Source: Squalus acanthias (lineage: Eukaryota). Taken from it: a DNA stretch of 64,000 nucleotides. The stretch is from assembly GCA_030390025.1 (NCBI GenBank), contig CM059427.1, positions 196,726,001 to 196,790,000 on the forward strand, given 5' to 3'. Of the stretch, positions 2,059-49,584 are shown piece by piece. The notes below the pieces were generated by a model. That model saw only the letters and a list, made by a program, of their open reading frames with translations, was not told the origin of the DNA and searched no databases. The position numbers were made by a program, and so were the translations under genes. How positions within the stretch are numbered: the first letter of the stretch is position 1; the number at the start of each line of letters is the position of its first letter.

Positions 2059-4522
2059 CTCATTGCTTACAGTGTTGCTGTAATTTATAGAATTCATCAT
2101 TCCTGGATTTTCTTTCCCGTTAGATTCATTCTGACATAACGCGTGTCTGTAGAAGTCCTGCAGATGTTGGGGTTGATGAAGTCTCTCTTCGTCGACTGCA
2201 ATGTTGAACATGATTCGTAGCGGAAACTCTGAGAAAGTGGATCACCCCCGAATACCTCAACGTAGTTCGGTGGTATCTGAAGGTTTCTACTGGCCTTTTG
2301 AATTCCATTCAGAGAATTTCTTGTTTCAAAGCAATAACAAACACCCAGGGAACAGTGCTGTCCTCCTGAACCATTTCTGCTTTTATGAACCTTAACAGCC
2401 AGGATAATTAAAATAACTAGAAAAATGATAGAAATTATCCCTAAGGCGATGACCAAGGAAAGACTCATATCGGGATTGAACCCAGGATCTTCAGGTAAAG
2501 CACTCACATTAGAAAACATTTCACTATCGCTACCCACCACAGATAATACTATAGTCACAGTGGCAGAAAGGGATGGTGTTCCATTGTCTCTTACCACAAT
2601 CACCAATCTTTGCTTAGAGGCATCTTTATTCGCAATACGACGGATAGTCCAAATTTCTCCAGTGTCTAGTGAAATAGTAAAAAGGTTATGATGGGTAGCC
2701 TGAAAAATTGATAAGAAAGACGAGCATTCTGACCGGCGTCAGCATCAGTGGCCGATACCTTGGCAACCAAGTAGCCTGGTTCTGCAAGCCTGGATATTGT
2801 CTCTGTTGCTGTCGACCCGTACTCAGGCAATGGGTGCACGATCACTGGAACATTGTCATTCTGATCAAGGATAACAACATCCACTGAAACGTTGTTGGTG
2901 AGTGTTGGGACTCCAGAGTCCTGAACCTGAACTTGGATCTGAAAGTTTTTCAGTTGCTCGTAGTCAAAAGATCTCTGAGCAAATATGACACCACTCTCTG
3001 AGTTTATAGCGACATAACTGGTTACTGAGGTGCCCTGAACTTGAGTGTCCAGGATAGAATAGTTCAGTCGAGCGTTCTGCACTACATCTGGATCGACGGC
3101 TGTCACTGAGAATATAGAAGTCCCAATAACATTGTTCTCCATCACGTTTGCCGTGTATAAATGCTGCGTAAACCTTGGTGCGTTGTCATTTATATCGGAA
3201 ACCTCTACCCGAATGGTTTTCTTGGATGTGAGAGGAGGGTTTCCTGCATCCCGGCATGTTATGGTAACGTCATACCTGGAGATTTGTTCGCGGTCCAGTA
3301 GATGCTGAATCAGCAGTCTATAATAGTTCTTCAAAGATGAATCTAATTTAAAGGGCAGTTTACTTGAGATTTGACATTGTACCTGCCCGTTTAGACCCGA
3401 ATCTTTGTCTGCTGCACTGAACAGAGCCACTACAGTCCCAAGCGGAGCATCTTCGGAAACTGTACTTGACAAAGACCTCAACATGACCTCAGGTGCGTTA
3501 TCATTCACATCAATAATGTCCACCAACACATCACAGTGCTCAGGAACTGCGTCAGAGCCCTTGTCCGTTGCTTGTATGTTAATCTCAAATGCACTGATTT
3601 CTTCATAGTCCAAATTCCCTTTCACTCTGATTTCACCAGTTTTAGAATCCACGTCAAATAGTTCACGGACTTTAGCGGAAGTATGGCTACTGAGCGAGTA
3701 TATTATCTCCCCATTAGGACCATCGTCCAAGTCAGTGGCGTTTAATGTGATTATCAGGGTTCCTGTGGGTGCACTTTCCAACAGGCTGACCCTATAAACC
3801 GACTGGGGGAAAACCGGCGCGTTGTCGTTCGTATCCTTTACTATGATTGTAACTTGAACAGTGCCCGATCTTACAGGGACCCCGCCGTCCATGGCTATTA
3901 GCTTTAGCCTGTGGGTGGATTCAGTTTCTCTATCCAAGGAACTCTGTAACACCAATACTGGAAACTTTCCTTTCCCACTGCGCATTTTTAGATCGAGAAT
4001 AAAATAATCGTTCGGGAGGAGCTGGTAGGTTTGTACTGAGTTGGTTCCAATGTCCGGATCGTGCGTGGACTCGAGGGGGAAGCGCGCTCCCGGCGCAGCA
4101 AGCTCGGAGATTTCAAGGCGGAGCTCGTCCTTTGCAAAACTGGGAGCATTGTCATTTACATCGAGAATCTCCACTTCAACCTGGTACAGACTGAGGGGAT
4201 TTTCAAGCACAGCATCCAAGGTTAACACACAAGTCAGGCTCGTCCCGCAAATCTGTTCTCTGTCAATTTTATCCTTGATAAACAAAATTCCATTGTCTAA
4301 ATTTACGTCCACATACTGTTCGCTGGGCCCGGCCACAATCCGCAAACTGCGAGCCGAGAGCTGCTTTACATCTAAACCCAAATCGGCGGCGATATTCCCA
4401 ACAAAGGCGCCCAGTTGCAGTTCTTCAGGAATCGAATAGCGAATCTGCCCAGAAACTAGGTTCCATGAGAATACCCAGAACAATAGTTGGCATTTCAGCA
4501 ACCAATATATTTTAAATCTCAT
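2059..4522 (-). CDS. Clustered protocadherin variable exon V1 (EC1-EC6, TM, variable cytoplasmic part); two 1-bp frameshifts near 2705 and 2130
   Basis: ORFs 2666..4528 and 2097..2606 give QIRYSIPEE, DRE, DxNDNxP, AxDxG motifs, a TM helix and NYVEVFGGDPLSQ. First in-frame ATG 4522 (ORF track start is TTG). Adding one A at CAA(A)TTTTT and at AGA(A)ATGAA restores a frame ending ..TVSNE at donor GAG|GTGAGG (GT 2058-2057). Either a young pseudogene or sequence error. Confidence 0.9.
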
Positions 4523-4559
4523 TTCCAACGTAAAACATTCCAGTTTGCTCAGTACGAGA

Positions 4560-4940
4560 CCGCACCATTCATTATTCTTGTAACAGTTATTTGAATTTTT
4601 TAACTTGAATAACTACGATGTACCAAATACCTGCACGTTTTGTGAATCGCTCGGCTTATTTCATTTAAATCTCCTCATTTTGACTAAAATTGCCACTGGA
4701 TTCTTGCACAAATCCTTCGGAGCTGCTCGCTATCCAATGTTACAGTGCGTCTGATCTTACGTGATGGTGTCTGGGTTGTGAAGGGGGCAGGCCGGATCAC
4801 CAGTCATATCTCAGCTTCTGATTGGTGAACAGAGGCATATTGAAATTCAACCAATCAGAATACTCTTCATTTCTTAAAGCTGGAAGGTCTCAAACCAGCG
4901 CAGAATATTTATATTTATTGTTGCACAATTAAAAATGGAA
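4560..4940 (-). promoter_or_regulatory. V1 promoter (CSE-like 4726-4740, bZIP-like TTACGTGA, G-rich box, inverted CCAAT pair 4821/4851)
   Basis: Motif blocks conserved in order and spacing upstream of every variable exon. Confidence 0.8.
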
Positions 4941-5807
4941 ATAAGCTTTATTTTACTATTGTGGACATTTCTGTCTATTGCGAAAACTTAGCTCGAGATC
5001 GTAACTACAAGGAATATCTAACAGAACAGCTATTGAGAATCTGCCATAGAAAAATAAAAGCATAAATCTTCGGGAGCATTAATTCAATTCCATTCATAAT
5101 CCATGTCTGATTATTGAACCATGCTTTTCCAACCTCTACCACCTGCTAATTCCTACTGAAGGAAGCCTTAATTATTTCCCCATCCTCCCATAAAACCTAT
5201 CAATAGGCACTATTAAGATTTACATCATCCGTTCTTCTCTCATCCAAACGGATAACCATCCAACCGCCTTATAATTGTGCTTTTTGACCTCAAATCAACT
5301 TTCTCTGCCCCACCCAACCACTAACTTGTGAAACAAATGTTGTTTTCTAATCTCTAAACTTGCTTGAATCTTGAGAATTTTATTCTTAATTCCTCTCGTC
5401 TTACACTCTGGTCTAAGTTAAGTAGCTGGTCATCTTCAAATTAGCTTATTACGTTCAATATTTTAAAGGCTTCTGTGCATTACCCCTCAATGCAGTTCCC
5501 TAAGCCTTTGGGTAAAACTTAATCCCCGAAATTCTAAAATCACCATGGTCACACTTTAAACTCTTTTTTAAATGCAGGCATGATCTTTTAGAGATAGAGT
5601 GATCATAACTGCAGACCATACTCCAGAACTAGTCATATGGTTAATTTGTACAATTTTAGCATAATTTGTTATGACTTCAAAACCACTTCCGCATGCTCCA
5701 TTTGTCTTACGCCTCACTCTTTTACTAGATGCTTTTACTACACTCTGACTAGATGCTTTCAGGTTAGGATCAATGATCACTCCTATATCTATGTTTTTCT
5801 TGTTTAG

Positions 5808-6278: not shown

Positions 6279-6608
6279 TTGTACTTAGGCTTACTGATAC
6301 TGTTCATATATGTATTATTTAACTTTGTTCCTCATCTTTCATACTTTAAACCCATGTTTTAAATTCACATTAACAAGCACAATTCATACCTCAACGCAAC
6401 TTTTGCAATTGGTAGATGTCACTCTAAAAATAATCAAGTTTCTTTCAACTCACGACCTGCCCACACACCGTTGTGACACTGGGAACAATGATAACACTAC
6501 TAAACCTTGTCCACGTGATTTACAAACAGTGTACAGTGGAGATCGTAGAAAATATCCTTGTACAATACACCTGTAAACAGTTCGCACCGACCTCTGTCTT
6601 ATGGCACT

Positions 6609-7186: not shown

Positions 7187-9096
7187 TTAACAGGTCTCAA
7201 TGAGTAGTTCATTGTGACACGTTATGGTGGTTCAGCTAAACCTCCCACTCTCCTGGTGTAATTGCGCACTTCGATGCTATTTAGGTAAACGTTCGACCGT
7301 CGAGTCAACGTGTGCTGAATAAAATTCAAATCCCGGAGAGAAGGTTGGCACACTGCATTGGCACACTGTCCTTTAAGACCTTGGTCATGGGTTTGAATGG
7401 AGCCCCGACTAATTGGATGGAATTACCATTATTTTTGCTGTTAGGGGCCAGATATGACAGGTACCAATCTTCTATTGTATCGCTGGAGCGCTGGGAAGCT
7501 GATTGGAGTTGGACTGTGGTCTCCTGTGCACTCGCTGCAGAATCGGCGAGATTTTTACACCTATTTACGCACGTGGAGAGAACTCCATTCAATAGTTTCT
7601 AAGCTCCAGTCAGAAGAGATCAGACGAAGCCGCCGATTCTCTGTTGACATTAAAAAGTTTAAAAATGAATATTTTTTTTGAAATTGACTTGACACCGCAA
7701 CTCGGCTTAAATGAAATTTGTGTGAAGCTCAATGATACAAGATGACCTGATCAATTTAGCGCGCTCTGGAATCAGCTCACCCGCCGATACTCGGTGTTTT
7801 ATTGTTGGATTTCAGTTGACGCATATCCAAAACAGCTGTTGCTCACAACCAAAATAGTAGTTAAAATCGTTCATAGCGGTCTCTCAGCACCGTTTCTTGG
7901 TAGGCTATTGTGGCCCCACAGGTACAACTGACCTGTTTTGCTGCGAGGCTGAGCTAACGCACAGCAGGCGCAGATTGGAACTTTGTTTATCGCACGTTTT
8001 GGATTTTAAACGTTGAAATTGCATTGAATTGCATAAAAAATTACAAAACGGCAACAGGCTGTTCGGCCCAATCAATCCTTGCTGAATAAGGAGTGATCTC
8101 ACACCACTACAGCTTTAGAGGTGTGGCATAGCAACTGCTATAGGTGCCCACCCAATTTCATTACACATCTTATTTTTTTACTGTTAGCCGGAGGGTAGGC
8201 TGTTCCTTATGCTCTCTGCTAACATTATTGAATGAAAATGTTAGCCACAAGTCATTGAGCAGCGTACATGTGTGTAAACCCCCATACCGAGCTCAACTTT
8301 CCCTGAAAGGACAACAATATGGAACTGGCATTACATCAGCTGGCTACTCATCACTTTAAGTTGGCGACTGTTACAAATCAGTTCCTGCCGTCTAACTGCA
8401 CCCTTGCGCTTCATTTCGCGGGGCTACAGTAGAGCTGGCAATGCATGATTATGGTATTAGGTCCCTAAAATGTAGGGCACCCATTCCTCGCCTTGATGAC
8501 CACAAAAAAGTGAACTAAAATAACTTAAAACAGCTCCAGTTTTTAATTTCCCTCCTATCACCCCCATCACTCATTAGAAGTAACATAAACTGTTAATCGA
8601 GGTACTCTTACTCAAGCTGGCATTTCTGAATTCCCCCACATTAATTATGGACACTTCACCTTATCTTTAATGGAGTTCGACTTGAACCCAGTTCGAGCAG
8701 GATCAAATAAATAGGTGGCAGCTGGAAATCTATCCTGGCTTCTACATTCTCTGAGATATGATTTATGGATCGCTGTTACGCTTAACGACGTAATGATGTC
8801 ATTGCACGTAACAGTAGCACGCACTGTGTGCATTCAAATGAACTGGGTGGAGGAAGAAGGAGGGGGTTGGAGAGAGGGGCTGAATTACGAATCTAAAAAG
8901 CTGCAATTACTAGCTGTACAACACACTTAGCGCATTCTGAAACACTGCCTTGAGGCTGGATTGGGCATGTTAACTGTAAAAAAAAAAAAAATTCTTAGAA
9001 ATCCATAAGAGAGCACCCAATCTTGTGCTGCTATGTTTTGCTGGTTACCTGTGGACCCAAAGCAAACCCGTGCGTTGTTCATTACCAATACCTCAC

Positions 9097-11568
9097 CTCA
9101 CTATTTACAGTGCTCCTATTGTTTGCAGACTTTGTTTTCAGTGGGGTTTCTTCTTTTCCCGTTGTTTCGCTGTTGAAGTAATTCTTCCCCGAGGATGAAG
9201 GGCACAGTTCGGGAAACAGGACTTCCCTCTTGGTCGAATTTAAAGTCGAACACGTCTCGTAGCGGAAGCTTTGGGAAAGTGGATCTCCTCCAAATACCTC
9301 AACGTAGTTAGGAGGGATCTGAATGTTGCGGCTGGCTTTTTGAATCCCATTCAGCGAATTCCTTGCTTGAAAACAGCAGCACATCTCCACATAACAACTG
9401 CGATCGTCAAAACCATGTCTGCGCTTATGGACCTTGAAAGCCAGCATAATTAAAACCACTAGAAAAATCGACGAGATTATCCCTAAAGATACGACTAAGT
9501 AAAGACTTATGTCAGAAGTTAACCCAGAATTATCAGACAAAGTACTTGAATCCGATAACATTTCTGTATCGCCCTCCACGACTGACAAGACGATAGTCAC
9601 TGTGGCGGATAGGGATGGTGTTCCGTTATCCTTGACCAAGATCAGCAACCTTTGCTTTCTGCCATCCTTGTTCACCATACGACGGGTTGTCCAGATTTCG
9701 CCAGTGTCGGTTGAAATAGTAAAAAGGTCAGGATCTGTAGCCTGCCGAATCTGATAGGAAAGCTGCGCGTTTCGGCCAGTGTCCGCGTCGGTGGCCGAGA
9801 CCTTAGCAACCAGGTATCCAGGTTCAGCGAAGCGGGACACTGTCTCCATTACCGCTGAACCAAACTCGGGTAATGGATGAACGATCACTGGGGCATTGTC
9901 ATTCTGATCAAGGATAAAAAAATCCACCGAAACTTTGCTGGCGAGTGGTGGGACTCCAGAGTCCTGGACCTGAACTTGGATCTGAAATTGTTTCAAGCGC
10001 TCGTAGTCAAAAGATCGCTGAGAAAATATGACACCACTCTCTGAGTTAATATAGACATAAGAGGACGGTAGTGCGCCCTGAATCTGAGTCCCCAGGATAG
10101 AGTAGGAAAGTCGAGCATTCTGGTTTAAATCTGAATCAAAGGCTGTCACTTGGAAAATAGAAGTCCCAATAATATTGTTCTCCATCACGTAAGCGGTATA
10201 GGAAGGCTGCGTAAAGCGTGGCGAGTTGTCATTGATATCGGAAACCTCCACCAGAATTGTTTTGTTGGATGTTAGCGGAGGTTTCCCTGCGTCGCTGCAT
10301 GCGACAGTAACATCGTACTTTGAGATATTTTCACGGTCCAGCAGCCGCTGCGTAAGCAGTCTATAATAGCTCTTTAAAGATAAGTCTAGCTTGAAGGGGA
10401 GGCCATTTGCGATTTCACATTGCACTTGCCCATTTTCTCCAGAATCTTTGTCCGCTGCGCTGATCAGGGCAACTACGGTTCCAGGCGGAGCATCTTCACT
10501 AACTGGGCTAGACAAAGAAGTCAGGGTCACTTCAGGGGCGTTATCATTCACGTCAATAATATGCACCACAACATCACAATAGACGGGGATTGCGGTAGGA
10601 CCTTTGTCGACTGCTTGCACGCTAATGGCGAATACATTGCTTTCTTCATAGTCCAGAGGTCCTTCAACTACGATTTCACCAGTTTTCGAATCCACACTAA
10701 ACAGCTGAGGCACTCTAACCGCTGTTCGGCTGCTGAAGGCGTATTCTATTTCTCCGTTGGAACCAGCATCCAAATCCGTAGCATTTAACCTGATTACCAG
10801 AGTTCCTTTAGGTGCATTTTCTAACAGCGTGACCCTATAAACCGACTGGGGGAAAACAGGCGCGTTGTCGTTTGCGTCCTGAGCCACCACGGTGACCTGA
10901 GCAGTGCCTGACCTTTCCGGAGATCCGCCGTCCTTGGCAATTAGCACTAACCTGTGGGCCGATTGCTTTTCTCTATCCAGGGATCGTTCCAATACCAGAA
11001 TTGGAAACACCCCCACTCCACTGCGCGTCTGGACATCCAGAGTGAAATAATCGTTCGGGAGGAGCTGGTAGGTTTGTACGGAGTTGATTCCTACGTCCGG
11101 ATCGTGCGCGGACTCGAGGGGGAAGCGCGCTCCCGGCGCAGCAAGCTCCGAGATTTCAAGGCGGAACTGACTCTTTGGAAATCTGGGAGCATTGTCATTT
11201 ACATCGAGAATCTCCACTTCAACGTGGTACAGATTGAGGGGGGTTTGAATCACAGCCTCCAAGGATAGCACGCAAGTGAGGCTCGGCCCACAAAGCTCTT
11301 CCCTGTCTATTTTTTCCCTCACAAAGAGAATCCCATTGTCTAAGTTTACGTCCAAATACTGTTTGCTGGCACCGGCCACAATCCGCAAACTGCGAGCCGA
11401 GAGCTGCTTTAAATCTAAACCCAAATCGGCGGCGATATTCCCAACAAAGGCCCCCAGTTGCAGCTCTTCAGGAATCGAATAACGAATCTGCCCAGAAACT
11501 AGATCCCATGAAGACAATATGTAGAACAATAGTTTCCATTTTAGCAACCAAATTATTTTATATCTCAT
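9097..11568 (-). CDS. Clustered protocadherin variable exon V2, intact
   Basis: 830-aa ORF 9082..11574 with signal peptide, six cadherin repeats, TM; ATG 11568; donor GAG|GTGAGG with GT at 9096-9095. Confidence 0.96.
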
Positions 11569-11599
11569 TTCCACACTGAATCATTCCAATGGTTTCAGC

Positions 11600-11985
11600 A
11601 CCAGACGGCTCCGTACATAATTCCTGTAACAGTTATTTAACTATCGTTTCTTAACTCGAAGGACGTATTGTGCAACAGTACCTGTGCTTGTTTTGAGAAT
11701 CGCCGAGATTATTTCACTTAAATCGTCTCATTTCGTCTAAAATTGCCGGCGATAGATTGCGCTGCAGCTCGCCATCCAGTCTTACACTGGTCTGCTGTTA
11801 CGTGATGGAGGATGGGAAAGGAACGGGGGCAGTCCGGATCACCAATCACAGTTAAGCTTCTGATTGGCCATCAGACGAACAGTGGTATTCAACCAATCAG
11901 AATACAGCTCATTTCTTAAAGCGACGATGTCTTCTTATTCCCTCGCAGCATATTTACATTTATTGTTGTACAATTAAAAATTAAA
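11600..11985 (-). promoter_or_regulatory. V2 promoter (CSE-like 11768-11782; CCAAT boxes 11842, 11863, 11893)
   Basis: Same motif array as V1. Confidence 0.8.
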
Positions 11986-14345: not shown

Positions 14346-15365
14346 AACTATATAGAATAATAAAGTGCGGTAGACCAGTGCTTTGTATAAGCTAATCAGC
14401 ACTTTCTCAGACGGTACGTCTTAAAATTCTGTTTATCTTTTTTTCCATCACCCTGGATTTTGTTCAAGGAGATGGTCTCACAGTGCTTCGGTATCAGAAG
14501 CCACTGTATTAAACTGCGCCAAGGCAACACAAAAATCTTACCAGGCAGCGTGGGAGATTTGTATGTATATTAGCAAACATGCACCGAGATTCTTTTTCGC
14601 TGAGGACAGAACAACGCTGAGCTGGGAGAAAAGCTTACACCTGCTGGCTCCACCTCCCTAGAAGCAGGTAGCAGTCTCGAACCGGTGCCTATGATATACC
14701 TGCATCTTTCTTTACTTTGCTGCTAACTGTGCAGAGGCTGGGTTGAGAATGCATGATTATAACTGTTACCTCAAATGAATAAGTGATCCAGCCCTTAGAG
14801 CTAACATAAATCGTCCTGATGACCACAGACACGGATAAAAAAATAAAATCATTATTAGCTGGTAACTTCACGAGAAATAAAGTATTATGAAACTGACATT
14901 TATGGATTATTGTAGGATAATTGTGAAGCTGGCGCTGCTCTGTATATGAAAGTTAGTTCGAGCAGAATCAGCAATTAGTAGGTGCTTGGAAGTACATCCT
15001 GCCTTACTCTTCCTATGACAGAGGGTTAACTTTTCATTTCACAGTTTAATCATAATACTACTTCTAATAATGGACGGTACATTAATCATCTTGTGCAACT
15101 TCTTATCATTGAGGATAAAACACTTGAAGAGTTGCTGTAATTTAATAGCACAAGCATGTCGAACACATTCTAAGATATATTACTACTTTGCATAGAGACT
15201 GGTCTGGGCAAAATGATCAGTAACCAAAGACGCAGGTAATTTGAGCTCAATTTGTGTTGAATTAACTCTTACAACTGCACATCGCCACAAAGAAACAGAC
15301 AATCTAATTTCGAATGTTCACCTGTGGATTCAAATCACAAAGTAATTTAAAAAAAATCACCTCAC

Positions 15366-17837
15366 CTCACTACTTTCAGTGTTAATATACTTTGAAGAAC
15401 TTGATGTCAGCGGATTCTCTTCTTTCCCAATAATTTCTCTCCGGACCTTAATCTTATCTGTAGATGAATTGCACGTGTTGGGAAACATCAAGTCTCTCTT
15501 GTTGGAATGCAAAGTTGAACAAGTCTCGTAGCGATAACTTTGGGAAAGTGGATCGCCCCCAAATACTTCAACATAGTTTGGAGCTATGTGAATGCTTCGG
15601 CTGGCTTTTTGAATTCCATTTAACGAATTCCTTGGTTGGATGCAGCAACATGTGTCCATGGCACAGGAATCGACATCAAATCCAGTTCTGTTTTTATGGA
15701 CCTTGAAGGCGAGGATAATTAAAACCAGTAGAAAAATCGATGAGATTATCCCTAAAGATATAACTAAGTAAAGGCTTATGTCAGAACTAAAGCCAGGATC
15801 TTCGGACAGGTTACTGGCACCAGGAAGCATCTCTGTATCGGCCTCCTCTACAGAGAACATTATCGTCATTGTAGCTGAGAGGGAAGGCGTCCCATTGTCT
15901 GCTACCACAATAAGCAACCTTTGCTTCTTGGAGTCTTTGTTCACAAGACGTCGGATTGTCCAGATTTCGCCAGTGTCGGATGAAATAGTAAAGAGGCCAG
16001 GGTCTGTACTTTGCCTAATCTGATAAGAAAGTTGTCCATTTTCACCAGCGTCAGCATCAGTGGCCGACACCTTCGCGACTAAGCACCCTGGTTCGGCGAA
16101 ACGAGACACTGTGTCCAATACTGTTGACCCAAACCCTGGTATTGGATGCAGGATCACTGGGGCATTGTCATTCTGGTCAAGGATAATTACATTTACTGAG
16201 GCGTTACCAGTAAGTGCGGGGACTCCAGAGTCCTGTGCTTGAACATGAATCTGAAAATGTTTTAGTTGTTCAAAGTCAAAAGTTCTCTGAGAAAATATGA
16301 TGCCACTGTCTACATTAATATCGACGTAATCAAACACTAGCTCCTCCTGAAGCCGAGTTTCCAAGATAGAATAGGATAGTCGAGAATTCTGCCTTAAATC
16401 CGGATCAAATGCAGTTAGTTGGAAGATAGAAGTCCCCATAATATTGTTTTCCATCACGTAAGCTGTATATAAAGGCTGTGTAAACTGCGGCGAGTTGTCA
16501 TTTATGTCTGAAACCTCCACCCGGATGGTTTTGTTGGATGTTAGAGGAGGGCTTCCCGCATCTCTGCATGTGATGGTAACATCGTACTTGGATATATTTT
16601 CGCGGTCTAGTGGATGGTGGGTAAGCAATCTATAATAGTTCTTTAAAGATAAATCTAGGACGAAAGAAAAGTTATCTGCGATTTGACATTCCACCTTTCC
16701 ATTTTCGCCTGAATCTTTGTCTGCTGCGCTGATCAGAGCAACTACGGTGCCCGGCAAAGCATCTTCACTTACTGGACTGGACAAGGAGGTCAAAGTCAAT
16801 TTAGGTACGTTATCATTCACATCAATAATGTCCACCAGCACATCGCAGTACACGGGCTTAGGGTAAGGACCCTTATCCATTGCTTGTACCTTGATCTCAA
16901 AAGCACTGTTTTCTTCATAATCTACACGCCCTTTCACTCTGATTTCACCAGTTTTGGAATCCACGGCAAATAGCTCGGGTACTCCTGCAGACGTATGACT
17001 GCTAAAAGAGTATACTATGTCTCCATTTGAACCATCATCCAAGTCAGTAGCATTTAATTTAATTACCAGGTTACCTTTAGGTGTATTTTCTAACAGACTG
17101 ACCCTATAAACTGACTGATCGAAAACAGGTTCGTTGTCGTTTGCATCTCCTATTATAATCAGTACTTGAGCAGTGCCTGACCGTTCAGGAACCCCTCCGT
17201 CCTTGGCAATTAGCACTAACCTGTGGACCGATTCCTTTTCTCTGTCCAAGAGTCTTTGCAGCACCAAGAATGGCAACTTTTCATCCCCGCTGCTCGTCTG
17301 TACTTCGAGAGCGAAATAATCGTTGGCATTTAGCTCGTAGGTTCGAAGGGCGTTTGTTCCAACGTCTGCATCATGCGCGCGTTCGAGCAGGAAGCGCGCT
17401 CCCGGTGTGGAAAGCTCTGAGATTTCCAGGCGGAACTGGCTCTTTGAGAATCTGGGTGCGTTATCATTTACATCTAAAATTTCCACTTCGGCGTGGTACA
17501 GGTTCAGGGGGTTTGCAAGCACGGCCTCCAGAGATACCGTACAACGGAGGCTGGCCCCACAGAGCTCCTCCCTGTCAATTTTTTCCCTTACAAACAGGAT
17601 TCCATTGTCTAAATTTACGTCGAAATACTGCTTCCTTGAGCCAGATACAATCCGAAAACTGCGAACTGCGAGCTGTTTCACATCTAAACCCAAATCGGCG
17701 GCGATATTCCCAACAAAGGCGCCCGGTTGCAGCTCTTCAGGAATCGAATAATGAAGCAGTCCAGAAACCATATCCCACGAGGTGAAAATACAGTACAACA
17801 GTTGCCATTTTATCAAACGATATATTTTATATCTCAT
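15366..17837 (-). CDS. Clustered protocadherin variable exon V3, intact
   Basis: 833-aa ORF 15357..17858 with full cadherin architecture; ATG 17837; donor GT at 15365-15364. Confidence 0.96.
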
Positions 17838-17869
17838 GACCAGCACAAAACATTCCAATTGTTTCAGCG

Positions 17870-18255
17870 CGTCGCGGTACTTTTCAATAATTCATTGGAA
17901 TAAAGTTGTTTAGAAATCATTTCTTAAGTAGATGTGCTAAATTGCACAAAATACCTTTACTTCTTAAAAATCGCCGAGATTATTCCTGAAAAATCTTCGT
18001 ATTTTTTAAAATCACCAATGAATGCATGTACAAAACGCAGCTCGCTATCCAGTTTTACGCTGTGTCTGATCGTACGCGATGGGGTGGATGGGAAGGGGGC
18101 AGTCAAGATCACCAGTCACACCTCAGCTTCTGATTGGCGAACAAAGGCACACTCATATTCAACCAATCTGAATACCGCTGATTTCTTAAAGCGAGAATGT
18201 CTTCTTAAAGCGTCGTGATTTTCTTGTTACATTTATTGGTGCGCAATTAAAAATA
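17870..18255 (-). promoter_or_regulatory. V3 promoter (CSE-like 18041-18055; CCAAT pair 18133/18163)
   Basis: Same motif array as V1. Confidence 0.8.
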
Positions 18256-22400: not shown

Positions 22401-23045
22401 AGTTCTCGATCTTTTAGGGACTCTACCATCTTTGTCAGAACGGGCTAACTTGTGGGTTGATTGTTTTTCTCTTTCCAATTAGTTTTCTAGCATCAATACA
22501 GGCAACTTTCCATCGGCACTCCGGGTTTCACTGTAGAATTAAATAATCGTTCAGAAGACAGCAGCAGATTTGGAGGGAGTTGCTTCCAACTTCCGGAACT
22601 TGGGAGCTTGCAAGCGCGAAGCGTGGCCCTGATGGAACATTCTCTGAGATGGAACAGGTCAGTGTTTGGAAAACTCAGAGAATTGTCATTTACATCTAGA
22701 ACCTGCATATTAATTTGGTCGAGGCTGAGTGGTTGTTTATTCACACCCTTTCAGCAAAATATCCAAGTGATACTCTGTTCACAAAGCCAAATATTTCCCA
22801 TCATAAGCAAAATCCCATTGATGAAATTTACATTCAAATTCTGTTTTCTCCGACCAGACACAATCCGAAACCACGAGCTGTCTTACATCTAAACCCAAAT
22901 TGACCGCAGCATTCCTAACAAAGCCACCCAGTTGTTTTCAGTAATCTAGTAGTGAATGTGTCCACAAATTAGGTACCAGCAAAGGAGCATAAACCAAAGC
23001 AGTTACCTATTTAGCACTGCATTTATTTTAAAATATTTGCACTTC
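19469..23045 (-). pseudogene. Decayed Pcdh variable exon psi-A (signal to start of EC6), split by a Harbinger-like insertion and lacking TM/cytoplasmic part
   Basis: Fragments VLDVNDNS (22493 ORF), EVNGNASDVTLTSL (21923 ORF), LEQNDNVPVIVHPLPDFGST (21358 ORF); EC6 start resumes at 19590-19469; many stops and indels; start codon lost. Confidence 0.9.
19591..21385. mobile_element. PIF/Harbinger-like DNA transposon deletion derivative with Myb/SANT-like gene relic (minus strand, about 20870-21110)
   Basis: Imperfect TIRs gggctgaattttgccagcg / cgatggcgaaattgcggcc (14/19); ATT duplicated at 19588-19590 and 21386-21388; APKLSHDYLNMLMEEVTARKEGLF..GRKRP..AWLHIAQE resembles Harbinger Myb/SANT proteins. 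Confidence 0.8.
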
Positions 23046-23139
23046 CATCAATAACCTCGCAAATGATTCAATGTGGGAAACACCATTCAGCATTTTCGTT
23101 GAATATCATGTCAGAATTCTATCCAGCAGAGTTACGTTG

Positions 23140-23425
23140 CTTAAAATACCTTTTGAATGCCCAAACAATTTTTCTGGCATTTTCCGCAAAGCGAAATTCG
23201 ATTCATGCAAAAAACCATGTAACGTTATGCAGCTCGCCATTTAGTTTTCCAATGTATTTGGTGCGTAATGACAAAAGCGGGCTGTCAGAATCTCCAGTCA
23301 CATTTCAGCTTCTCATTGGTGAAAAGAAGAACTCTCAGATTCAACCAATGACAATGCTCAATATCTCTTAAAGCTAGAGCGTCTTTGCAACACTTTGTCC
23401 AAATTTATTGTGGTGCAATTAAATT
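23140..23425 (-). promoter_or_regulatory. psi-A promoter, motifs largely retained (CSE-like near 23233; CCAAT pair 23315/23345)
   Basis: gcagctcgccatttagtttt, tctccagtcaca, attgg-30bp-ccaat, cttaaagct. Confidence 0.7.
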
Positions 23426-25148: not shown

Positions 25149-27604
25149 CTCACTGTTTACAGTGTTCTTGTAGTTTAAATTCCGGAGAACTTCTTCATTC
25201 CCACTCGTGGAGTTATTCTTGCGTGTAGATGACCTGTACATGTTAGGAAACATGGCGTCTCTCTTTGCCGTACCTGAAGTCGAACACGTGTCATAGCGGA
25301 AGCTTTGAGAAAGTGGATCGCCCCCAAACACTTCGACATAGTTCGGAACTATTTCAAGATTTCTGCTGGCTTTTTGAATTCCATTCAACGAATTTCGTGC
25401 TTCGAAGCAACAACACGTGTCCAGGTAACCATTATGGGCACCAAACCGGTTTCTGTTTTTATGAACCTTAAGGGCGAGGATAATTAAAACCACGAGAAAA
25501 ATAGACGAGGTTATTCCTAACGATATGACTAAGAAAAGGCTGATGTCACCAAAGGACCCTGGATCCTCAGACTGAATGCTCACGTCGGAAAGCATTTCCG
25601 TATCACCGTCTGTCAGTGATAAGATGATTGTCATTGAAGCTGAAAGCGGGGGTGAACCATTGTCTTTTGCACCGATGACCAATCTTTGCTTTGTGCCGTC
25701 TTTGCTCATAATGCCACGGATTGTCCAGATTTCGCCTGTATCCGGCGAAATGGTAAAAAGTCCAGGGTCAGTCGTCTGGAGAATCTGGTAAGAGAGGCGA
25801 GCATTCTGGCCAGAGTCGGCATCAGTGGCCGACACCTTGGCAACTAGATAGCCAGGTTCTGCGAATCGAGATACTGTCTCTGTTACTGTAGATCCATACT
25901 CGGGTAATGGATGCTCGATCACCGGAGCATTGTCATTCTGATCAAGGATAATTACCTCCACCGAGACGTTGCTGGAGAGTGGTGGGACTCCAGAGTCCGT
26001 AACCTGAACTTGGATCTGAAAATTTTTGAGGTTCTCGTAGTCAAAAGATCTTTGAGAAAATATGACGCCCTTTTCTGATTGGATGTAGACGTAATTGAAC
26101 ACTGACTCACCCTGAACCTGAGTCGATCTGATGGAATAGTTTAGCCGAGAGTTCTGGTTTAAATCTGGATCAAAAGCTGTCACTGAAAAGATAGACGCTC
26201 CAATAACATTGTTCTCCATCACGTAAGCTGTATATAAAGGCTGTGCAAAGCGGGGCGCATTATCATTTATATCCGAAACCTCCACCAGGATGACTTTCTT
26301 GGATGTGAGGGGAGGAGACCCTGAATCACTGCAGAGGACAGTGACTTCGTACCTCGAGATATTTTCACGATCAAGTACCTGTTGTGTGCGCAATGTTAAG
26401 TATTTCTTGGAGGATGAATCCAGTTGAAAAGGAAAGTTATCTGTGACTAAACATTCAACCCGCCCACTTTCTCCTGAATCTTTGTCTGTTGCACTGATTA
26501 GAGCTACAACTGTCCCGGGCACCGAGTCTTCAGGAACTGGACTGAACAGGGTAGAGACAGTCACCTCAGGGGAGTTATCATTTATATCCACAAGCTGAAC
26601 CAGCACATGACAATAAGCAGGAATTGCGTGAGGTCCCTGTCCATTGCTTGCGCAATGATCTCAAAAACACTGTTCTCTTCATAGTTTAAATTTCGCTTGA
26701 CTCTGATTTCACCAGTTTTGGAATCCAGTCCAAACAGCTCACGGACTCTAACTGAGGTATGGCGACTGAAAGAGTAAACAATCTCTCCATTGGAACCATC
26801 ATCCAAATCAGTGGCATTTACTTTGATCACCAATGTTCCTTTGGGTGTATTTTCCAACAGACTAACCCTGTAAATAGACTGGGAGAACACAGGCGTGTTG
26901 TCGTTCACATCTTGTACACTGATTAATATTTGTGCAGTTCCAGACCGCTCAGGGACTCCGCCGTCTTTGGCAATCAGCACTAACCTGTGACTAGATGTCT
27001 TTTCTCTATCCAGTGGCCTTTCCAAAACTAACACTGGCTCATCTTCATTCCCATTTCGTCTCTCAAGATATAAAGCGAAGTATTCGTTGGCAACTAGCTC
27101 GTACGATTGCAGGGAGTTGGTTCCGACGTCTGGGTCGTGCGCGCATTCAAGGAGATATCGCGTTCCTGGTGCGGCCAGCTCGGAGATTTCAAGGCGGAAC
27201 TGGCTTTTTGGAAAAGTAGGAGCATTGTCATTTACATCCAGAATATTCACTTCAACATCGGACAGACTGAAAGGATTTTCGATCACTGTTTCTAAAGGTA
27301 GCACACACTTCTCGCTCGGCCCACAGAGCTGTTCTCTGTCAATCTTCTCTTTTACAAATAAATTACCATTGTTCAAATTTACGTCGAAATACTGCTTCGT
27401 GGACCCAGGCACAATCCGAAAGCTGCGAGCTTTGAGCTCCTTCAGGACTAAACCCAAATCGTCTGCGATATTCCCAACAAAGGCGCCCAGTTGCAGTTCT
27501 TCAGGAATTGAATAGCGAATCTGTCCAGAAATTAGATCCCAGAAGGAGCATACACAGTACAACAGTGACCATTTTAACAGCCAGTGTCGTTTATAATATC
27601 TCAT
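25149..27604 (-). CDS. Clustered protocadherin variable exon V4; one 1-bp frameshift near 26638
   Basis: ORFs 26582..27625 and 25134..26606 join if GAC AG GGA is read GAC AAG GGA as in paralogs; ATG 27604; donor GT at 25148-25147. Confidence 0.9.
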
Positions 27605-27639
27605 CTCCAGCACAAAGCATCCCAATTGTTTCAGCCCGA

Positions 27640-36910: not shown

Positions 36911-39365
36911 CTCACTATTTACAGAATTCTTGCAGTTTAAATTCCGGAGAACTTCTTCTTTTCCACACGTGAGGTTATTCTTGCGTGTAGATGACCTGTA
37001 CATGTTAGGAAACATGGTGTCTCTCCTGGCCGTACCTGAAGTCGAACACGTGTCATAGCGGAAGCTTTGAGAAAGTGGATCGCCCCCAAACACCTCGACA
37101 TAATTCGGAACTATTTCAAGATTTCTGCTGGCTTTTTGACTTCCATTCAGCGAATTTCGTGCTTCGAAGCAACAACACGACTCCAGGTAACCATTATGGG
37201 CACCAAACCGGTTCCTGTTTTTATGAACCTTAATAGCGAGAATAATTAAAACCACGAGAAAAATAGATGAGGTTATTCCTAACGATATGACTAAGAAAAG
37301 GCTGATGTCACCAAAGGACCCAGGATCCTCAGACTGACTGCTCACGTCAGAAAGCATTTCCGTATCACCGTCTGTCAGTGATAAGATGATTGTCATTGAA
37401 GCTGAAAGCGGGGGTGAACCACTGTCTTTTGCACTGATGACCAACCTTTGCTTTGTGCCATCTTTGCTCATAATGCCACGGATTGTCCAGATTTCGCCTG
37501 TATCCGGCGAAATGGTAAAAAGTCCAGGGTCAGTCGTCTGGAGAATCTGGTAAGAGAGACGAGCATTCTGGCCAGAGTCGGCATCAGTGGCCGACACCTT
37601 GGCAACTAGATAGCCAGGTTCTGCGAATCGAGATACTGTCTCTGTTACTGTAGATCCATACTCGGGTAATGGATGCACGATCACCGGAGCATTGTCATTC
37701 TGATCAAGGATAATTACCTCACCGAGACGTTGCTGGAGAGTGGTGGGACTCCAGAGTCCGTAACCTGAACTTGGATCTGAAAATTTTTGAGACTCTCGTA
37801 GTCAAAAGATCTTTGAGAAAATATGACACCCTTTCCTGTTTGGATGTAGACGTAATTGAACACAGACTCACCCTGAACCAGAGTCGCCCTGATGGAATAG
37901 TTTAGCCGAGAGTTCTGGTTTAAATCTGGATCAAAAGCTGTCAGTGAAAAGATAGACGCTCCAATAACATTGTTCTCCATCACGTAAGCTGTATATAAAG
38001 GCTGTGCAAAGCGGGGCGCGTTATCGTTTATATCCGAAACTTCCACCAGGATGACTTTCTTGGATGTGAGGGGAGGAGACCCTGAATCACTGCAGAGGAC
38101 AGTGACTTCGTACCTCGAGGTATTTTCACGATCAAGTACCTGTTGTGTGCGCAATGTTAAGTATTTCTTGGATGATGAGTCCAGTTGAAAAGGAAGGTTA
38201 TCTGTGACTATACATTCAACCCGCCCACTTTCTCCTGAATCTTTGTCTGTTGCACTGATTAAAGCTACAACTGTCCCGGGCACCGAGTCTTCAGGAACTG
38301 GACTGAACAGGGTAGAGACAGTCACCTCAGGGGAGTTATCATTTATATCCACAATCTGAACCACTACATGACAATAAGCAGGAATTGCGTGAGGTCCCTT
38401 GTCCGATGCTTGCACATTGATTTCAACAACACTGTCCTCTTCATAGTTTAAATTCCCTTGACTCTGATTTCACCAGTTTTGGAATCCAGTCCAAACATCT
38501 CACGGATTCTAATAGAGGAATGGCGACTGAAAGAGTAAACAATCTCTCCATTGGAACCATCATCTAAATCAGTGGCATTTACTTTGATCACCAATGTTCC
38601 TTTGGGTGTATTTTCCAACAGACTGACCCTGTAAACTGACTGGGAGAACACAGGCATGTTGTCGTTCACATCTTGTACACTGATTAATATTTGTGCAGTT
38701 CCAGATCGCTCAGGGACTCCGCCGTCTTTGGCAATCAGCACTAACCTGTGACTAGATGTCTTTTCTCTATCCAGTGGTCTTTTCAAAACTAACACTGGCT
38801 CATCTTCATTCCCATTTCGTCTTTCAACATTTAAAGAGAAGTATTCGTTGGCAACCAGCTCGTACGATTGCAGGGAGTTGGTTCCTACGTCTGGGTCGTG
38901 AGCGCATTCAAGGGGATATCGCGTTCCCGGTGCGGCCAGCTCGGAGATTTCAAGGCGGAACTGGCTTTTTGGAAAAGTAGGAGCATTGTCATTTACATCC
39001 AGAATATTCACTTCAACATCGGACAGACTGAAAGGATTTTCGATCACTGTTTCTAAAGGTAGCACACACTTCTCGCTCGGTCCACAGAGCTGTTCTCTGT
39101 CAATCTTTTCCTTTACAAATAAATTACCATTGTCCAAACTTACGTCGAAATACTGCTTCGTGGACCCAGGCACAATCCGAAAGCTGCGAGCTTTGAGCTC
39201 CTTCAGGACTAAACCCAAATCGTCTGCGATATTCCCAACAATGGCGCCCAGTTGCAGTTCTTCAGGAATTGAATAGCGAATCTGTCCAGAAATTAGATCC
39301 CAGAAGGAGCATACACAGCACAACAGTGACCATTTTAACAGCCAGTGTCGTTTATAATATCTCAT
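36911..39365 (-). CDS. Clustered protocadherin variable exon V5; two 1-bp frameshifts near 38451 and 37720
   Basis: ORFs 38448..39374, 37714..38415 and 36896..37684 tile one Pcdh; breaks are aaa vs aaaa and c vs cc relative to paralogs V6/V4; ATG 39365; donor GT at 36910-36909. Confidence 0.9.
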
Positions 39366-39399
39366 TTCCAGCACAAAGCATCACAATTGTTTCAGTCCG

Positions 39400-43906: not shown

Positions 43907-43945
43907 ATTGCCTTTTAGGACATAGATGCTCATTCCACCGTTATT

Positions 43946-45649: not shown

Positions 45650-46552
45650 TTAAGTTAGGTGGCACAAGAAATCGTTTAGATGGGAGCAGAAAGTTAGAAA
45701 GGGACATTGATAGATTACATGAGTGGAGCAAACTGAGGAGATGCAGATCAATATGAGTAAGTTTGAGGTTATCCGCTTTGGACTGAAGGAAGAAAGAACA
45801 GAGTCCTTTCTAAATGGCACGAACTAGCAACTGTGGATCAGAAGAGAAATTTATGGGGTCCAAGTACAGAAATCACTAAAAGTTAGTAGACAGGTACAAA
45901 AAATAATTTTAAAGGCTAATTGACAGTTGGTCTTTATCTCACGAGGGCTTGAATACAAAGGGATGGAATTTATGTTCCACCTGTAGAGAGCACTGGTTAG
46001 ACCACCCCCGCCCCGCCCCTCATCTGGTGTGCTCAATTCAGTTCTGGGCACCACACCTCAGGAAGGATATATTGGCCTTGGAGAGGGTGCAGCTCAGATT
46101 TACCAGAATGATACGGGGTTAAAACGGTTAAATTATGAGAACAGGTTGGATAGACTAGGCTTGTATTCACTTGAATATAGAACATTAAGGGAAGATCTAA
46201 TTGAAGGGCTTAAGATGATTAAAGGAACTGATAAGGTAGGTAGAGAGAAACTGTTATCTTTGATGGGAGAACAAGGGGGCATAAGATTAGAACTAGATCG
46301 TTAAGGGGTGATGTCAGAAAGCACTACTTCACACAAATGGTAGTGGAAATCTGGAACTCTGCTCCCCCAAAACCTGTTGAGCTGAGGGGTCAATTGAAAA
46401 TGTCAAAACTGAGATTGATAGGTTTTTCTTATGCAAAGGTATTAAGGGTTAGAGAACTAGGTGGGTAGATGGAATTAAGATACAGATCCGCCATGTTCTA
46501 ATTGAATGGCGGAACAGGCTCGAGGTGATAAATGGACTCCTCCTGTTCCCAT
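45650..46552 (+). mobile_element. Old CR1 3' fragment (duplicate)
   Basis: Near copy of 35450-36395. Confidence 0.85.
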
Positions 46553-47095
46553 GACCCTTACAACTTTTCTATCAATTTTTTTCCATATAATTGTGCTAAT
46601 CATACTGCTCTATTTTCTTGCTTCTCCTAAACTTCAAGTATATAGCTACCACTCGTTCTTCTTCCTGAATTTAGATCAGTTGCATTGTCTCCTATTCTAA
46701 CACATTTTCATGCAGAACTTCAAAGTGTGAAATATCTTGATGCTCTCAGTCTCTTTTCAACTGCAATCTACGATAACCCAATCCTGGTGGCTTTTCGCCA
46801 ATATTTGATTCTTCTCATCTTTTCACCTATACTGTTCACTTTGTTGCTATTCTACACTATTACAATTTACACTTCACCTGGACTTCTCAACGTAAAACTC
46901 GAAGATGCCTTGTTTAGGCGTAACTATTTTGAATATAATTAGCAATATAAGTTCAGAGGTGGGACGATTACTCTTATCTGCCATTACTGGGCCATCAACT
47001 AGAAAAAGACGGAACGTTTTGCTACAATACTTCAGCGGATGTCTGTACACCCTGAATGAAACGTCAAAATGTTTTAGTTTTCAGAAGCTCCTCAC

Positions 47096-49552
47096 CTCAC
47101 GATTTACAGAGTTCTTGCAGTTTAAATTCCGAAGAACTTCTTCATTTCCACTCGTGAGGTTATTCTTGCGTGTAGATGACCTGTACATGTTAGGAAACAT
47201 GGCGTCTCTCTTGGCCGTACCTGAAGTCGAACACGTGTCATAGCGGAAGCTTTGAGAAAGTGGATCGCCCCCAAACACCTCGACATAGTTCGGACCTATT
47301 TCAAGATTTCTGCTGGCTTTTTGAATTCCATTTAGCGAATTTCGTGCTTCGAAGCAACAACATGAGTCCAGGTAACCATTATGGGCAGCAAACCGGTTCC
47401 TGTTTTTATGAACCTTAATGGCGAGAAAAATTAAAACCACGAGAAAAATAGACGAGGTTATCCCTAACGATATGACTAAGAAAAGGCTGATGTCACCAAA
47501 GGACGCAGGATCCTCAGACTGACTGCTCACGTCAGAAAGCATTTCCGTATCACCGCCTGTCAGTGATAAGATGATTGTCATTGAAGCTGAAAGCGGCGGT
47601 GATCCATTGTCTTTTGCACCGATGACCAATCTTTGCTTTGTGCCATCTTTGCTCATAATGCCACGGATTGTCCAGATTTCGCCTGTATCCGGCGAAATGG
47701 TAAAAAGTCCAGGGTCAGTCGTCTGGAGAATCTGGTAAGAGAGGCGAGCATTCTGGCCAGAGTCGGCGTCAGTGGCCGACAGCTTGGCAACTAGATAGCC
47801 AGGTTCTGCGAATCGAGATACTGTCTCTGTTACTGTAGATCCATACTCGGGTAATGGATGCACGATCACCGGAGCATTGTCATTCTGATCAAGGATAATT
47901 ACCTCCACCGAGGCGTTGCTGGAGAGTGGTGGGACTCCAGAGTCCGTAACCTGAACTTGGATCTGAAAATTTTTGAGTTTCTCGTAGTCAAAAGATCTTT
48001 GAGAAAATATGACTCCCTTTCCAGATTGGATGTAGACGTAATTGAACACAGACTCGCCCTGAACCTGAGTCGCCGCGATGGAATAGTTCAGCCTAGAGTT
48101 CTGGTTTAAATCTGGATCAAAAGCTGTCACTGAAAAGATAGACGCTCCAATAACATTGTTCTCCATCACGTAAGCTGTATATAAAGGCTGTGGAAAGTGT
48201 GGCACGTTATCGTTTATATCCGAAACCTCCACCAGGATGACTTTCTTGGATGTGAGGGGAGGAGACCCTGAATCACTGCAGAGGACAGTGACTTCGTACC
48301 TCGAGATATTTTCCCGATCAAGTACCTGTTGTGTGCGTAATGTTACGTATTTCTTGGATGATGAGTCCAGTTGAAAAGGAAGGTTATCTGTGACTTGACA
48401 TTCCACCCGCCCATTTTCTCCTGAATCTTTGTCTGTTGCACTGATTAGAGCTACAACTGTCCCGGGCACCGAGTCTTCAGGAACTGGACTGAACATTGTA
48501 GAGACAGTCACCTCAGGTGCGTTATCATTTATATCCACAATCTGAACCAGCACATCACAATAAGCAGGAACTGCGTGAGCTCCCTTGTCCATTGCTTGCA
48601 CATTGATCTCAAAAACACTGTTCTCTTCAAAGTTTAAAATTCCCTTGACTCTGATTTCACCAGTTTTGGATTCCAAACCAAACAGCTCACGGACTCTAGC
48701 TGAGGTATGGCGACTGAAAGAGTAAACAATCTCTCCATTGGAACCGTCATCTAAATCAGTGGCATTTACTTTGATCACCAATGTTCCTTTGGGTGTATCT
48801 TCCAACAGATTGACCCGATAAACTAACTGGGGGAACAAAGGCGTGTTGTCGTTCAGATCTTGTACACTGATTAATATTTGTGCAGTTCCGGAACGCTCAG
48901 GGACCCCGCCGTCTTTGGCAATCAGCACTAACCTGTGACGAGATGTCTTTTCTCTGTCCAGTGGCCTTTTCAAAACTAACACTGGCATGTCTGGATTCCC
49001 ATTTCGGCTCGCAACATTTAAAGCGAAGTACTCGTTGGCACCCAGCTGGTATGATTGCAGGGAGTTGGTTCCTACGTCTGGGTCGTGAGCGCTGTCAAGG
49101 GGATAGCGCGTTCCCGGTGCTGCCATCTCTGAGATTTCAAGGCGGAACTGGCTTTGTGGAAAAGTCGGAGCGTTATCATTTACATCGAGAACCTCCACTT
49201 CAACATCGTACAGACTGAAAGGATTTTCGATCACTGTTTGTAAAGATAACACACACGTCTCGCTCGGCCCACACAACTGTTCTCTGTCAATCTTTTCCTT
49301 TACAAATAAATTACCATTGTTCAAATTGATGTCGAAATACTGCTTTGTGGAACCAGGCACAATCCGAAAACTGCGAGCTTTGATCTCCTTCACGTCTAAA
49401 CCCAAATCGCCTGCGATATTCCCAACAAAGGCGCTCAGTTGCAGTTCTTCAGGAATTGAATAGCGAATCTGTCCAGAAATTAGGTCCCAGAAGCAGCATA
49501 CACAGCATAACAGTGACCATTTTAACAGCCAGTGTCGTTTATAATATCTCAT
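47096..49552 (-). CDS. Clustered protocadherin variable exon V6, intact
   Basis: 830-aa ORF 47081..49573; ATG 49552; donor GT at 47095-47094. Confidence 0.96.
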
Positions 49553-49584
49553 TTCCAGCACAAAGCATCCCAATTGTTTCAGCG

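Follow-up and report, generated by a model that had tools for sequence, protein, structure and literature searches.

An out-of-frame ATG conserved 16 nt upstream of the start codon of protocadherin nu variable exons in Squalus acanthias, a candidate overlapping uORF start

Clustered protocadherins are known to be controlled through promoter choice and repression, and control by an overlapping upstream AUG is itself a common mechanism. The window analyzed here, a stretch of 64,000 nucleotides of Squalus acanthias DNA, raises the question of what an ATG placed 16 nt 5' of the main ATG does in a row of protocadherin exons (V1 to V6). The first-pass annotation had reported such an upstream ATG (uATG) in six exons, always with G at its -3 position and opening the frames MFYVGNEI*, MIQCGNEI*, MFCAGHEI*, MLCAGDEIL* and, twice, MLCAGNEIL*. 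Positions (4538, 11584, 17853, 27620, 39381 and 49568, minus strand), peptides and G at -3 were confirmed in all six exons, and in each of them the ATG precedes the CDS start in another frame, which ends inside the CDS, as in an overlapping ORF (oORF). The six exons are not all complete as had been stated, since V1, V4 and V5 are frameshifted in the assembly and have frames of 618, 340 and 305 aa, caused by 1-nt deletions mostly in short base runs. These frameshifts may be assembly errors. The features of the six exons are as follows.

4512..4538, minus strand: V1 overlapping uORF, 8 codons and stop; main ATG 4522, CDS frameshifted after about codon 605
4523..4555, minus strand: V1 conserved pre-start block, -33 to -1
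9082-11568, minus strand: V2 exon, open, 828 aa
11558..11584, minus strand: V2 overlapping uORF, 8 codons and stop; main ATG 11568
11569..11601, minus strand: V2 conserved pre-start block; main-frame TGA at -15
15357-17837, minus strand: V3 exon, open, 826 aa
17827..17853, minus strand: V3 overlapping uORF, 8 codons and stop; main ATG 17837
17838..17870, minus strand: V3 conserved pre-start block
27591..27620, minus strand: V4 overlapping uORF, 9 codons and stop; main ATG 27604, CDS frameshifted (340 aa)
39352..39381, minus strand: V5 overlapping uORF, 9 codons and stop; main ATG 39365, CDS frameshifted twice (305 aa)
47081-49552, minus strand: V6 exon, open, 823 aa; cadherin domains (Pfam)
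49539..49568, minus strand: V6 overlapping uORF, 9 codons and stop; main ATG 49552
49553..49585, minus strand: V6 conserved pre-start block; main frame LKQLGCFVLE

The exons are protocadherin nu variable exons: each is a single large exon, with cadherin domains found in V6, they group with Callorhinchus nu8, nu9, nu13, nu15 and nu17 (support 0.896), and two constant-exon matches lie downstream. To our knowledge, nu genes are confined to cartilaginous fishes; the nu subcluster has been described for the elephant shark (PMC2764143). When the whole cluster was surveyed, 23 of the 26 nu exons whose start could be recognised had the -16 ATG, as did 18 of the 21 with open frames; in one of the 23 a 1-nt deletion brings it in frame. 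None of the 58 non-nu cluster exons examined carries it, and it is absent from three open nu exons, two of which also lack most of the block, so that its description as cluster-wide had to be given up. The exact 24-letter block pattern has 10 matches in the genome, all of them nu exons, looser versions being outside the reach of the pattern. During collection of the cluster exons, 4 of 93 anchors were dropped as partial; the counts do not include five C3 matches that were weak or broken, nor any match on another contig. The 26-exon tree was built without four copies that have decayed and a single divergent, broken exon, and the start codon was placed by hand in three nu and five non-nu exons. 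A separate three-exon group in the cluster has an ATG at -25, in the same frame as the -16 ATG.

Two of the trees require at least 2 changes in the three columns of the -16 ATG, and the CDS tree requires 3. Fourfold sites showed 3.1-3.3 changes each (n=23) and promoter columns 3.5-3.7 (n=352), so that the uATG, with 2-3 changes, is better conserved than a neutral triplet, the sum for three fourfold sites being about 9-10 (only 23 such sites were available). It is the joint lowest of 31 leader triplets, tied with TGG at -5..-3, and its level of conservation is reached by 2 of these 31 and by 7-11% of aligned promoter triplets. The first-pass annotation had named as refuting a uATG no better conserved than the flanking leader bases, and this outcome is half seen: the uATG is conserved above the average leader base but no better than nine other block columns, which equal it. 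Exchange is frequent between the two purines at -17 (3-4 changes) and between the two pyrimidines at -13 (7 changes); positions -16 and -14, by contrast, have changed once or twice. From composition alone about 0.7 ATG per 33-nt block, or 9.5 in 14 lineages, would be expected; the above-chance part of the -16 ATG is its fixed place and its conservation rather than its presence. Synonymous sites differ at 56% among the 14 nu lineages. Of the 23 uATGs, 21 are preceded by a purine at -3, and the context lacks G at +4. The independence of the observations is limited, as had been cautioned, but the earlier count of about four was too low, there being about 11 separate lineages. Judged by these comparisons, the -16 ATG is of long standing and has been conserved in about 11 old lineages of paralogues.

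In the 58 non-nu exons, the leaders contain fewer ATGs than expected (75 vs 112, 56 vs 94 and 16 vs 29), which suggests that an ATG at this position would normally tend to be lost. Proximal out-of-frame ATGs downstream of the start have been described as purged from genomes (PMC9743702). The nu leaders contain 0-6 further, unconserved uATGs within -241..-17, and the -16 ATG is therefore often not the first in its leader. A comparison of the V3 leader with DNA contigs of two related organisms gave no uATG difference among the 40 of 174 differences listed, and is not counted as evidence. Two candidate readings of the sequence around the ATG were rejected: a hairpin, and a TEAD-like reading of GGAATG, which was given up since GGGATG stands there in about half of the exons.

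Decayed exon copies had also been brought forward, in which both the uATG and the main ATG were said to be gone. Three copies in the window were taken as those meant.

22900..23200, minus strand: decayed copy, taken as psi-A; start-equivalent about 23042, both ATGs lost
52690..52980, minus strand: decayed copy, taken as psi-D; start-equivalent about 52945, both ATGs lost
57220..57510, minus strand: decayed copy, taken as psi-E; start-equivalent about 57479, both ATGs lost; 86% alike to psi-D

The loss is real, but it carries no weight as an argument for uATG function, because these copies are only 63-69% identical to the functional exons, psi-D and psi-E are so alike, and in one decayed copy outside the window the start is lost but the ATG 16 nt ahead of it survives.

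The codons after the uATG showed pN/pS of 0.82-1.11, and the uORF peptide is accordingly without purifying selection, unlike that of a conserved-peptide uORF. The stop at +8/+11 is kept in three of three exons without the uATG and is absent in two open exons with it; its position is not coupled to the uATG, which leaves reinitiation after termination, or a selected short frame, as first proposed, without support. Codons ending in T prevail in the stop region (46 T vs 8 C). No protein starting in the uORF frame was found among the 134 proteins of other species searched. In the best reading set out below, the 8-9-residue peptide and the exact stop would be by-products.

Transcript cover and promoter signs in the window were found at the following positions.

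11422..11809, unstranded: RNA-like contig (run X1, record 4), ungapped over V2 main ATG and uATG, to -241
17695..18031, unstranded: RNA-like contig (run X2, record 16), ungapped over V3 main ATG and uATG, to -194
11863..11897, minus strand: V2 paired inverted CCAAT boxes at about -329 and about -299, predicted promoter

The contigs come from one study, their RNA nature is a guess, and contigs cannot show a start site. All 14 nu lineages have paired CCAAT boxes, at about -290 to -350, which suggests that transcription starts about 200 nt upstream. A promoter some 200-300 nt upstream would place the uATG within the 5' leader.

We propose, with about equal confidence for and against, that the -16 uATG is the start of an overlapping uORF which damps translation by leaky or competitive scanning. 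The mechanism would start from the conserved 33-nt block that most nu exons carry just 5' of the start codon, with the out-of-frame -16 ATG inside it. The uATG would likely divert part of the scanning ribosomes and so yield less protein per mRNA; its moderate context (-3 purine, no G at +4) predicts partial initiation, the other ribosomes leaking to, or competing for, the main AUG. The 16-nt spacing would put the main AUG at the edge of the competition range of about 17 nt from yeast reporters, and after out-of-frame initiation part of the mRNA may in addition be degraded by nonsense-mediated decay (NMD). The sister subcluster and one nu exon have GTG or GTA at the place of the ATG in the homologous block, so an ATG-free version was within reach. 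Seven annotated proteins with an upstream extension, from five other species, have G, E or Q followed by C at the matching codons, which is compatible with A|TG, the third base of the G/E/Q codon not being given by proteins. A conserved start with an unconstrained peptide (pN/pS 0.8-1.1) is the usual pattern of regulatory uORFs as described in PMC7889888.

The homologous block of the sister subcluster, being without the ATG, makes a motif with an incidental ATG a strong rival. The block would then be a site for a DNA- or RNA-binding factor, promoter-proximal or in the leader, that predates nu, the ATG being one constrained triplet whose uORF effect is tolerated; we regard this as possible, though on the improbable side. 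It agrees with the 12 of 30 block columns that changed at most once, with the loss of the block as a whole in two of the three ATG-less nu exons, with the compositional expectation of about 0.7 ATG per block, and with the sister subcluster, where the block has GTA or GTG and nine of 12 exons, from about three lineages, have their best PWM match at -19..-21. Seven of 14 lineages have, at -33, a G[CT]GCTG[AG]A word that resembles a reverse REST half-site as given in PMC2926608, and three of 14 have it at -9. However, a full canonical or spaced NRSE (2-11 nt spacer) was present in none of the 14 lineages within -450..+100, no shared RNA fold was found (alignment energy 0.0; z from -1.5 to +1.5), and no candidate binding factor was identified. 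Moreover, if binding tolerated G at -16 and A at -14, the bases of the sister subcluster, more than the single transition observed would be expected at these positions. It is much less probable, in fact very unlikely, that the ATG lies outside the mature mRNA, owing to a start near the main ATG or a leader intron, or is merely ancestral inheritance. Donor-like MAGGTA words at -94..-130 in 9 of 14 lineages and an acceptor-like AG near -55 in several fit an intron, and low contig cover between exons too means that pre-mRNA or DNA may contribute. Such an intron would nevertheless end upstream of the uATG and leave it in the mRNA; the contigs cross the region ungapped to -241 (V2) and -194 (V3), the CCAAT boxes of all 14 lineages suggest a start about 200 nt up, and with 56% synonymous divergence passive inheritance fails to explain the block.

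Translation of the block in the main frame from a near-cognate CUG (-30) or UUG (-21) would add 7-10 residues before the signal peptide, and the ATG would then span the boundary between a GRA codon and a Cys codon; we consider this very unlikely. In its favor, third codon positions have more changes (4.7) than first (2.6) and second positions (2.7), with a permutation p of 0.013 when this frame is tested and 0.04 when any frame is allowed. The block has a pN/pS of 0.65, compared with 0.51 for the signal peptide (null p 0.05-0.07). An in-frame ATG stands at -21 in a single nu exon, and proteins from other sharks, from a ray and from a chimaera retain L-x-x-L-x-C-F-x-x-E. The last seven residues of the V6 block translation (LKQLGCFVLE) match an upstream stretch of the Callorhinchus protein P0012. 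Against this, stops interrupt the main frame in 6 of 26 exons, of which five are open genes, with no depletion vs shuffles (P 0.30-0.34); the third base of CUG (G) changes 4-5 times, the third codon base at -16, which should vary if coding, changes once, and the homologous block of the sister subcluster is offset by one base. The nu exons do not share an open main frame from a conserved near-cognate start, and an extension open in all homologues, which they lack, was a selection criterion in PMC3105428. The earlier argument that the uATG is no by-product of an in-frame extension stands, with the main-frame TGA confirmed in V2 and V5; an extension explains the uATG poorly. The borderline codon-like main-frame pattern of the block (p 0.01-0.07) is an observation that the uORF reading leaves unexplained.

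If the conserved overlapping uAUG acts as proposed, it would be a translational setting for one protocadherin subfamily. Natural controls are present in the three open nu exons without the ATG and in the sister subcluster, which has the block and lacks the ATG. We consider it rather unlikely, though worth stating, that cartilaginous fishes tune the dose of whole protocadherin subfamilies at translation, nu (-16) and the three-exon group (-25) each having fixed, hundreds of millions of years ago, an overlapping out-of-frame start. In that case the amounts at the neuron surface would differ between isoform classes that have such a start and those that lack it, a translational layer atop promoter choice which was not described for clustered protocadherins in the literature searched.

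Neither a uATG in the leader nor a pre-start block of clustered protocadherins was found in the literature searched, which excluded the original elephant-shark cluster paper. With the NRSE/RE1 of clustered protocadherin promoters, as presented in PMC2926608, the nu exons share only a half-site-like word (-33, -9, some exons); the complete element with its 2-11 nt spacer is missing in 14 of 14 nu lineages. Like the non-AUG N-terminal extensions of PMC3105428, the nu block shows borderline codon-like conservation 5' of the AUG and near-cognates at -30 and -21; unlike the extensions described there, it has stops in 6 of 26 paralogues, no fixed near-cognate and only 7-10 codons. A conserved start with an unconstrained peptide is typical of regulatory uORFs in the account of PMC7889888, and with the oORFs of eukaryotic 5' leaders in that account the nu uATG shares an out-of-frame AUG overlapping the CDS start, a conserved start, a neutral peptide and a context no better than that of the main AUG. 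It differs from them in being kept across the paralogues of a tandem subcluster, with a fixed 16-nt spacing and a wider conserved block, and in that its translation is a prediction. In the reporters described in PMC9743702, out-of-frame uATGs at -7 to -25 cut output by distance and context, with NMD in yeast. The nu arrangement, two out-of-frame AUGs 16 nt apart with partial inhibition and NMD predicted, resembles the Brownian-ratchet competition between AUGs proposed there; whereas those constructs were synthetic yeast and human reporters, the nu uATG would be a natural, retained upstream case.

The first-pass annotation had placed an out-of-frame ATG (uATG) 16 nt 5' of the main ATG in the six protocadherin variable exons V1-V6 of the window, on the minus strand, and re-reading of the sequence confirmed it in 6/6, together with the peptides of the short open frame that it begins (uORF) and the G at -3 (6/6). 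Of the exons described as complete, V2, V3 and V6 are so, but V1, V4 and V5 are broken by 1-nt deletions in this assembly, mostly at short base runs, and their frames stop early at 618, 340 and 305 aa, respectively. The indels seen in five such exons are all deletions (of 1-2 nt, apart from one of 3 nt that keeps the frame), a pattern suggestive of assembly error. Across the cluster, 28 of the 89 exons examined (G000:C3 196.65-198.68 Mb) have a mature frame of <760 aa, and many of these may reflect indels of the assembly and not true pseudogenes. Other features of the window are listed below; the reverse-transcriptase frames lie between exons and are LINE-like insertions.

17659: site within the V3 CDS of a 7-nt deletion in a matching contig from sequencing runs X6 and X7 (two related organisms), where V3 may be broken
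28201-30945, minus strand: reverse-transcriptase frame, also with an endonuclease domain
31716-33209, plus strand: reverse-transcriptase frame
51043-51654, minus strand: reverse-transcriptase frame
61932-63998: seventh exon (L040, anchor G000:C3:196790322), with an open 796-aa mature frame, a 2-nt deletion directly after the start codon and the uATG retained

In exon L041 (anchor G000:C3:196802956), a 1-nt deletion just 3' of the main ATG brings the -16 ATG into the cadherin frame (MLCAGNEIYKRH...), and a second deletion lies farther along; both may be assembly errors.

The window sits in a ~2 Mb protocadherin cluster on contig C3 (107 matches genome-wide; 93 exon anchors from the stretches examined). 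The 26 exons with a recognisable start at the 3' end of the cluster form one clade with Callorhinchus nu8, nu9, nu13, nu15 and nu17 (support 0.896), and constant-tail matches are found downstream of them. The nu subcluster is described as confined to cartilaginous fishes, and gene conversion in elephant shark is reported to be limited (PMC2764143). In our tree, the closest partner of several nu paralogues is a protein from a ray or another shark, and that of one is a chimaera protein; the nu lineages are therefore old. We take their age to be ~300-400 million years.

The -16 ATG is present in 23 of the 26 nu exons (18/21 open frames and 5/5 broken ones) and also, immediately upstream, in a divergent exon with a broken frame. 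The three nu exons that do not have it all keep open frames and read GTG, ATT and ATT at this place. Since it occurs in 0/58 other cluster exons with an assignable start, the feature is subcluster-specific and not, as had been proposed, cluster-wide. The earlier argument from its loss in pseudogenes falls away as well, the decayed copies being only 63-69% identical and too diverged to be informative; two of the three in the window are 86% alike, and another decayed copy has the -16 ATG with the main start lost. Exons L069, L065 and L062 (anchors G000:C3 197321450, 197347971 and 197369884), which belong to another subgroup and have a signal peptide of 18 residues, carry an out-of-frame ATG at -25 that has the frame of the nu uATG and opens 33-46 codons. 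The V1-type exons (G000:C3 196681164-196730447) include nine recent duplicates with an extra ATG at -46, which reads in the frame of the -16 uORF (18 codons) and is also seen, at -43, in one other lineage.

Over -33 to -1 the nu exons align without gaps. Positions -16, -15 and -14 require a minimum of 1, 0 and 1 changes on the tree, compared with means per site of 3.1-3.3 at fourfold sites (n = 23) and 3.5-3.7 in promoter columns (n = 352). The ATG is joint lowest among the 31 triplets of this block, but 7-11% of promoter triplets change as little. Because columns -30, -29, -27, -20, -12, -11, -5, -4 and -3 are equally fixed, the selected unit, judged from the alignment, is the block, roughly CT..A......T...ATG.TT.....TGG, with the ATG its best-kept part. 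Read in the main frame, the block also occurs in seven proteins of five other species, annotated from further upstream (Scyliorhinus torazame and S. canicula, counted as one genus, Heptranchias, Pristis, Rhincodon and Callorhinchus); LGCFVLEM is common to V6 and the chimaera protein P0012. At the protein level these matches date the block, the A of the ATG not being provable from them.

Such a block could be a factor-binding motif, which we regard as a real if doubtful possibility. A profile of -21 to -9 has its best match at -19 to -21 in 9/12 exons of the sister subcluster (L056, L061, L064, L068, L060, L058, L059, L071, L067, L055, L091 and L072; G000:C3 196916828-197084650), with GTA or GTG in place of ATG, so the block exists without an ATG. 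However, this ATG-free version is within reach and yet seldom adopted in nu, and ATG is depleted in non-nu leaders. No full NRSE by the consensus of PMC2926608 occurs at -450 to +100 in the 14 nu lineages, and no RNA fold common to them was found. Several sister-subcluster exons have an acceptor-like TTTGCAG in the block, at about -21 to -15. Translation of the block as a main-frame N-terminal extension from a near-cognate start is improbable: third positions in this frame do vary more (p 0.013-0.04) and its pN/pS is 0.65 (p 0.05-0.07), but 6/26 nu exons have in-frame stops, without depletion, and the near-cognate CTG is not fixed among them.

That the uATG is absent from the mRNA, or merely inherited, seems about as improbable. 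Two ungapped contigs from one study, guessed to be RNA, span the main ATG and the uATG (V2 to -241, V3 to -194), although a contig cannot mark the transcription start and low contig cover between exons indicates that pre-mRNA or DNA is possibly present. Leaders of that length have 0-6 additional ATGs per exon, which are unconserved. Paired inverted CCAAT boxes lie at about -290 to -350 in 14/14 nu lineages. Together with a conserved ATAAAT, GCTTTAAGAAA and a C/T-rich box at about -400 to -250 (V2: window 11820-11970), they are seen in nearly all nu exons. A donor-like MAGGTA lies at about -94 to -130 in 9/14 lineages (V2: near window 11684), with an acceptor-like AG 55-70 nt 3' of it, at about -53 to -56 (V2: near 11623); the contigs seen are unspliced, and the pair could reflect either a factor site or an intron of very small size in the leader.

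After its ATG, the uORF peptide has a pN/pS of 0.8-1.1 and thus, by this measure, evolves freely. Its stop at +8 or +11, formed where AA, AG or GA comes after a codon with T as third base, is found in 22/26 nu exons, and only 2/58 others have a stop within +20. This stop is retained in 3/3 nu exons without the uATG and absent from two open exons with it, and T-ending codons prevail in the stretch anyway (46 T vs 8 C). The stop is uncoupled from the uATG and gives no support to the termination-reinitiation suggested earlier.

Our preferred reading is that the uAUG diverts some scanning ribosomes and partially damps CDS output, a prediction to which we give an even chance. Some scanning complexes would initiate at the uAUG, which has a purine at -3 in 21/23 exons and G at +4 in 0/23, and be lost for the CDS, and the remainder would go on to the main AUG, which has G at -3 in 26/26 nu exons. 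Partial damping is predicted from the behaviour of yeast reporters, in which inhibition by an out-of-frame uATG weakens with nearness to the main AUG, competition occurs between AUGs up to ~17 nt apart, and initiation out of frame leads to NMD (PMC9743702). Full-text literature searches, which did not cover the elephant-shark cluster paper, found no uORF in clustered protocadherin leaders. Taken together, the sequence evidence presents the -16 ATG as a real, old, subcluster-specific feature and likely a new instance of a putative, otherwise known translational control. With a conserved start and a freely evolving peptide, the nu uORF resembles common uORFs, in which, as described in PMC7889888, the start codon is usually conserved and the peptide neutral.
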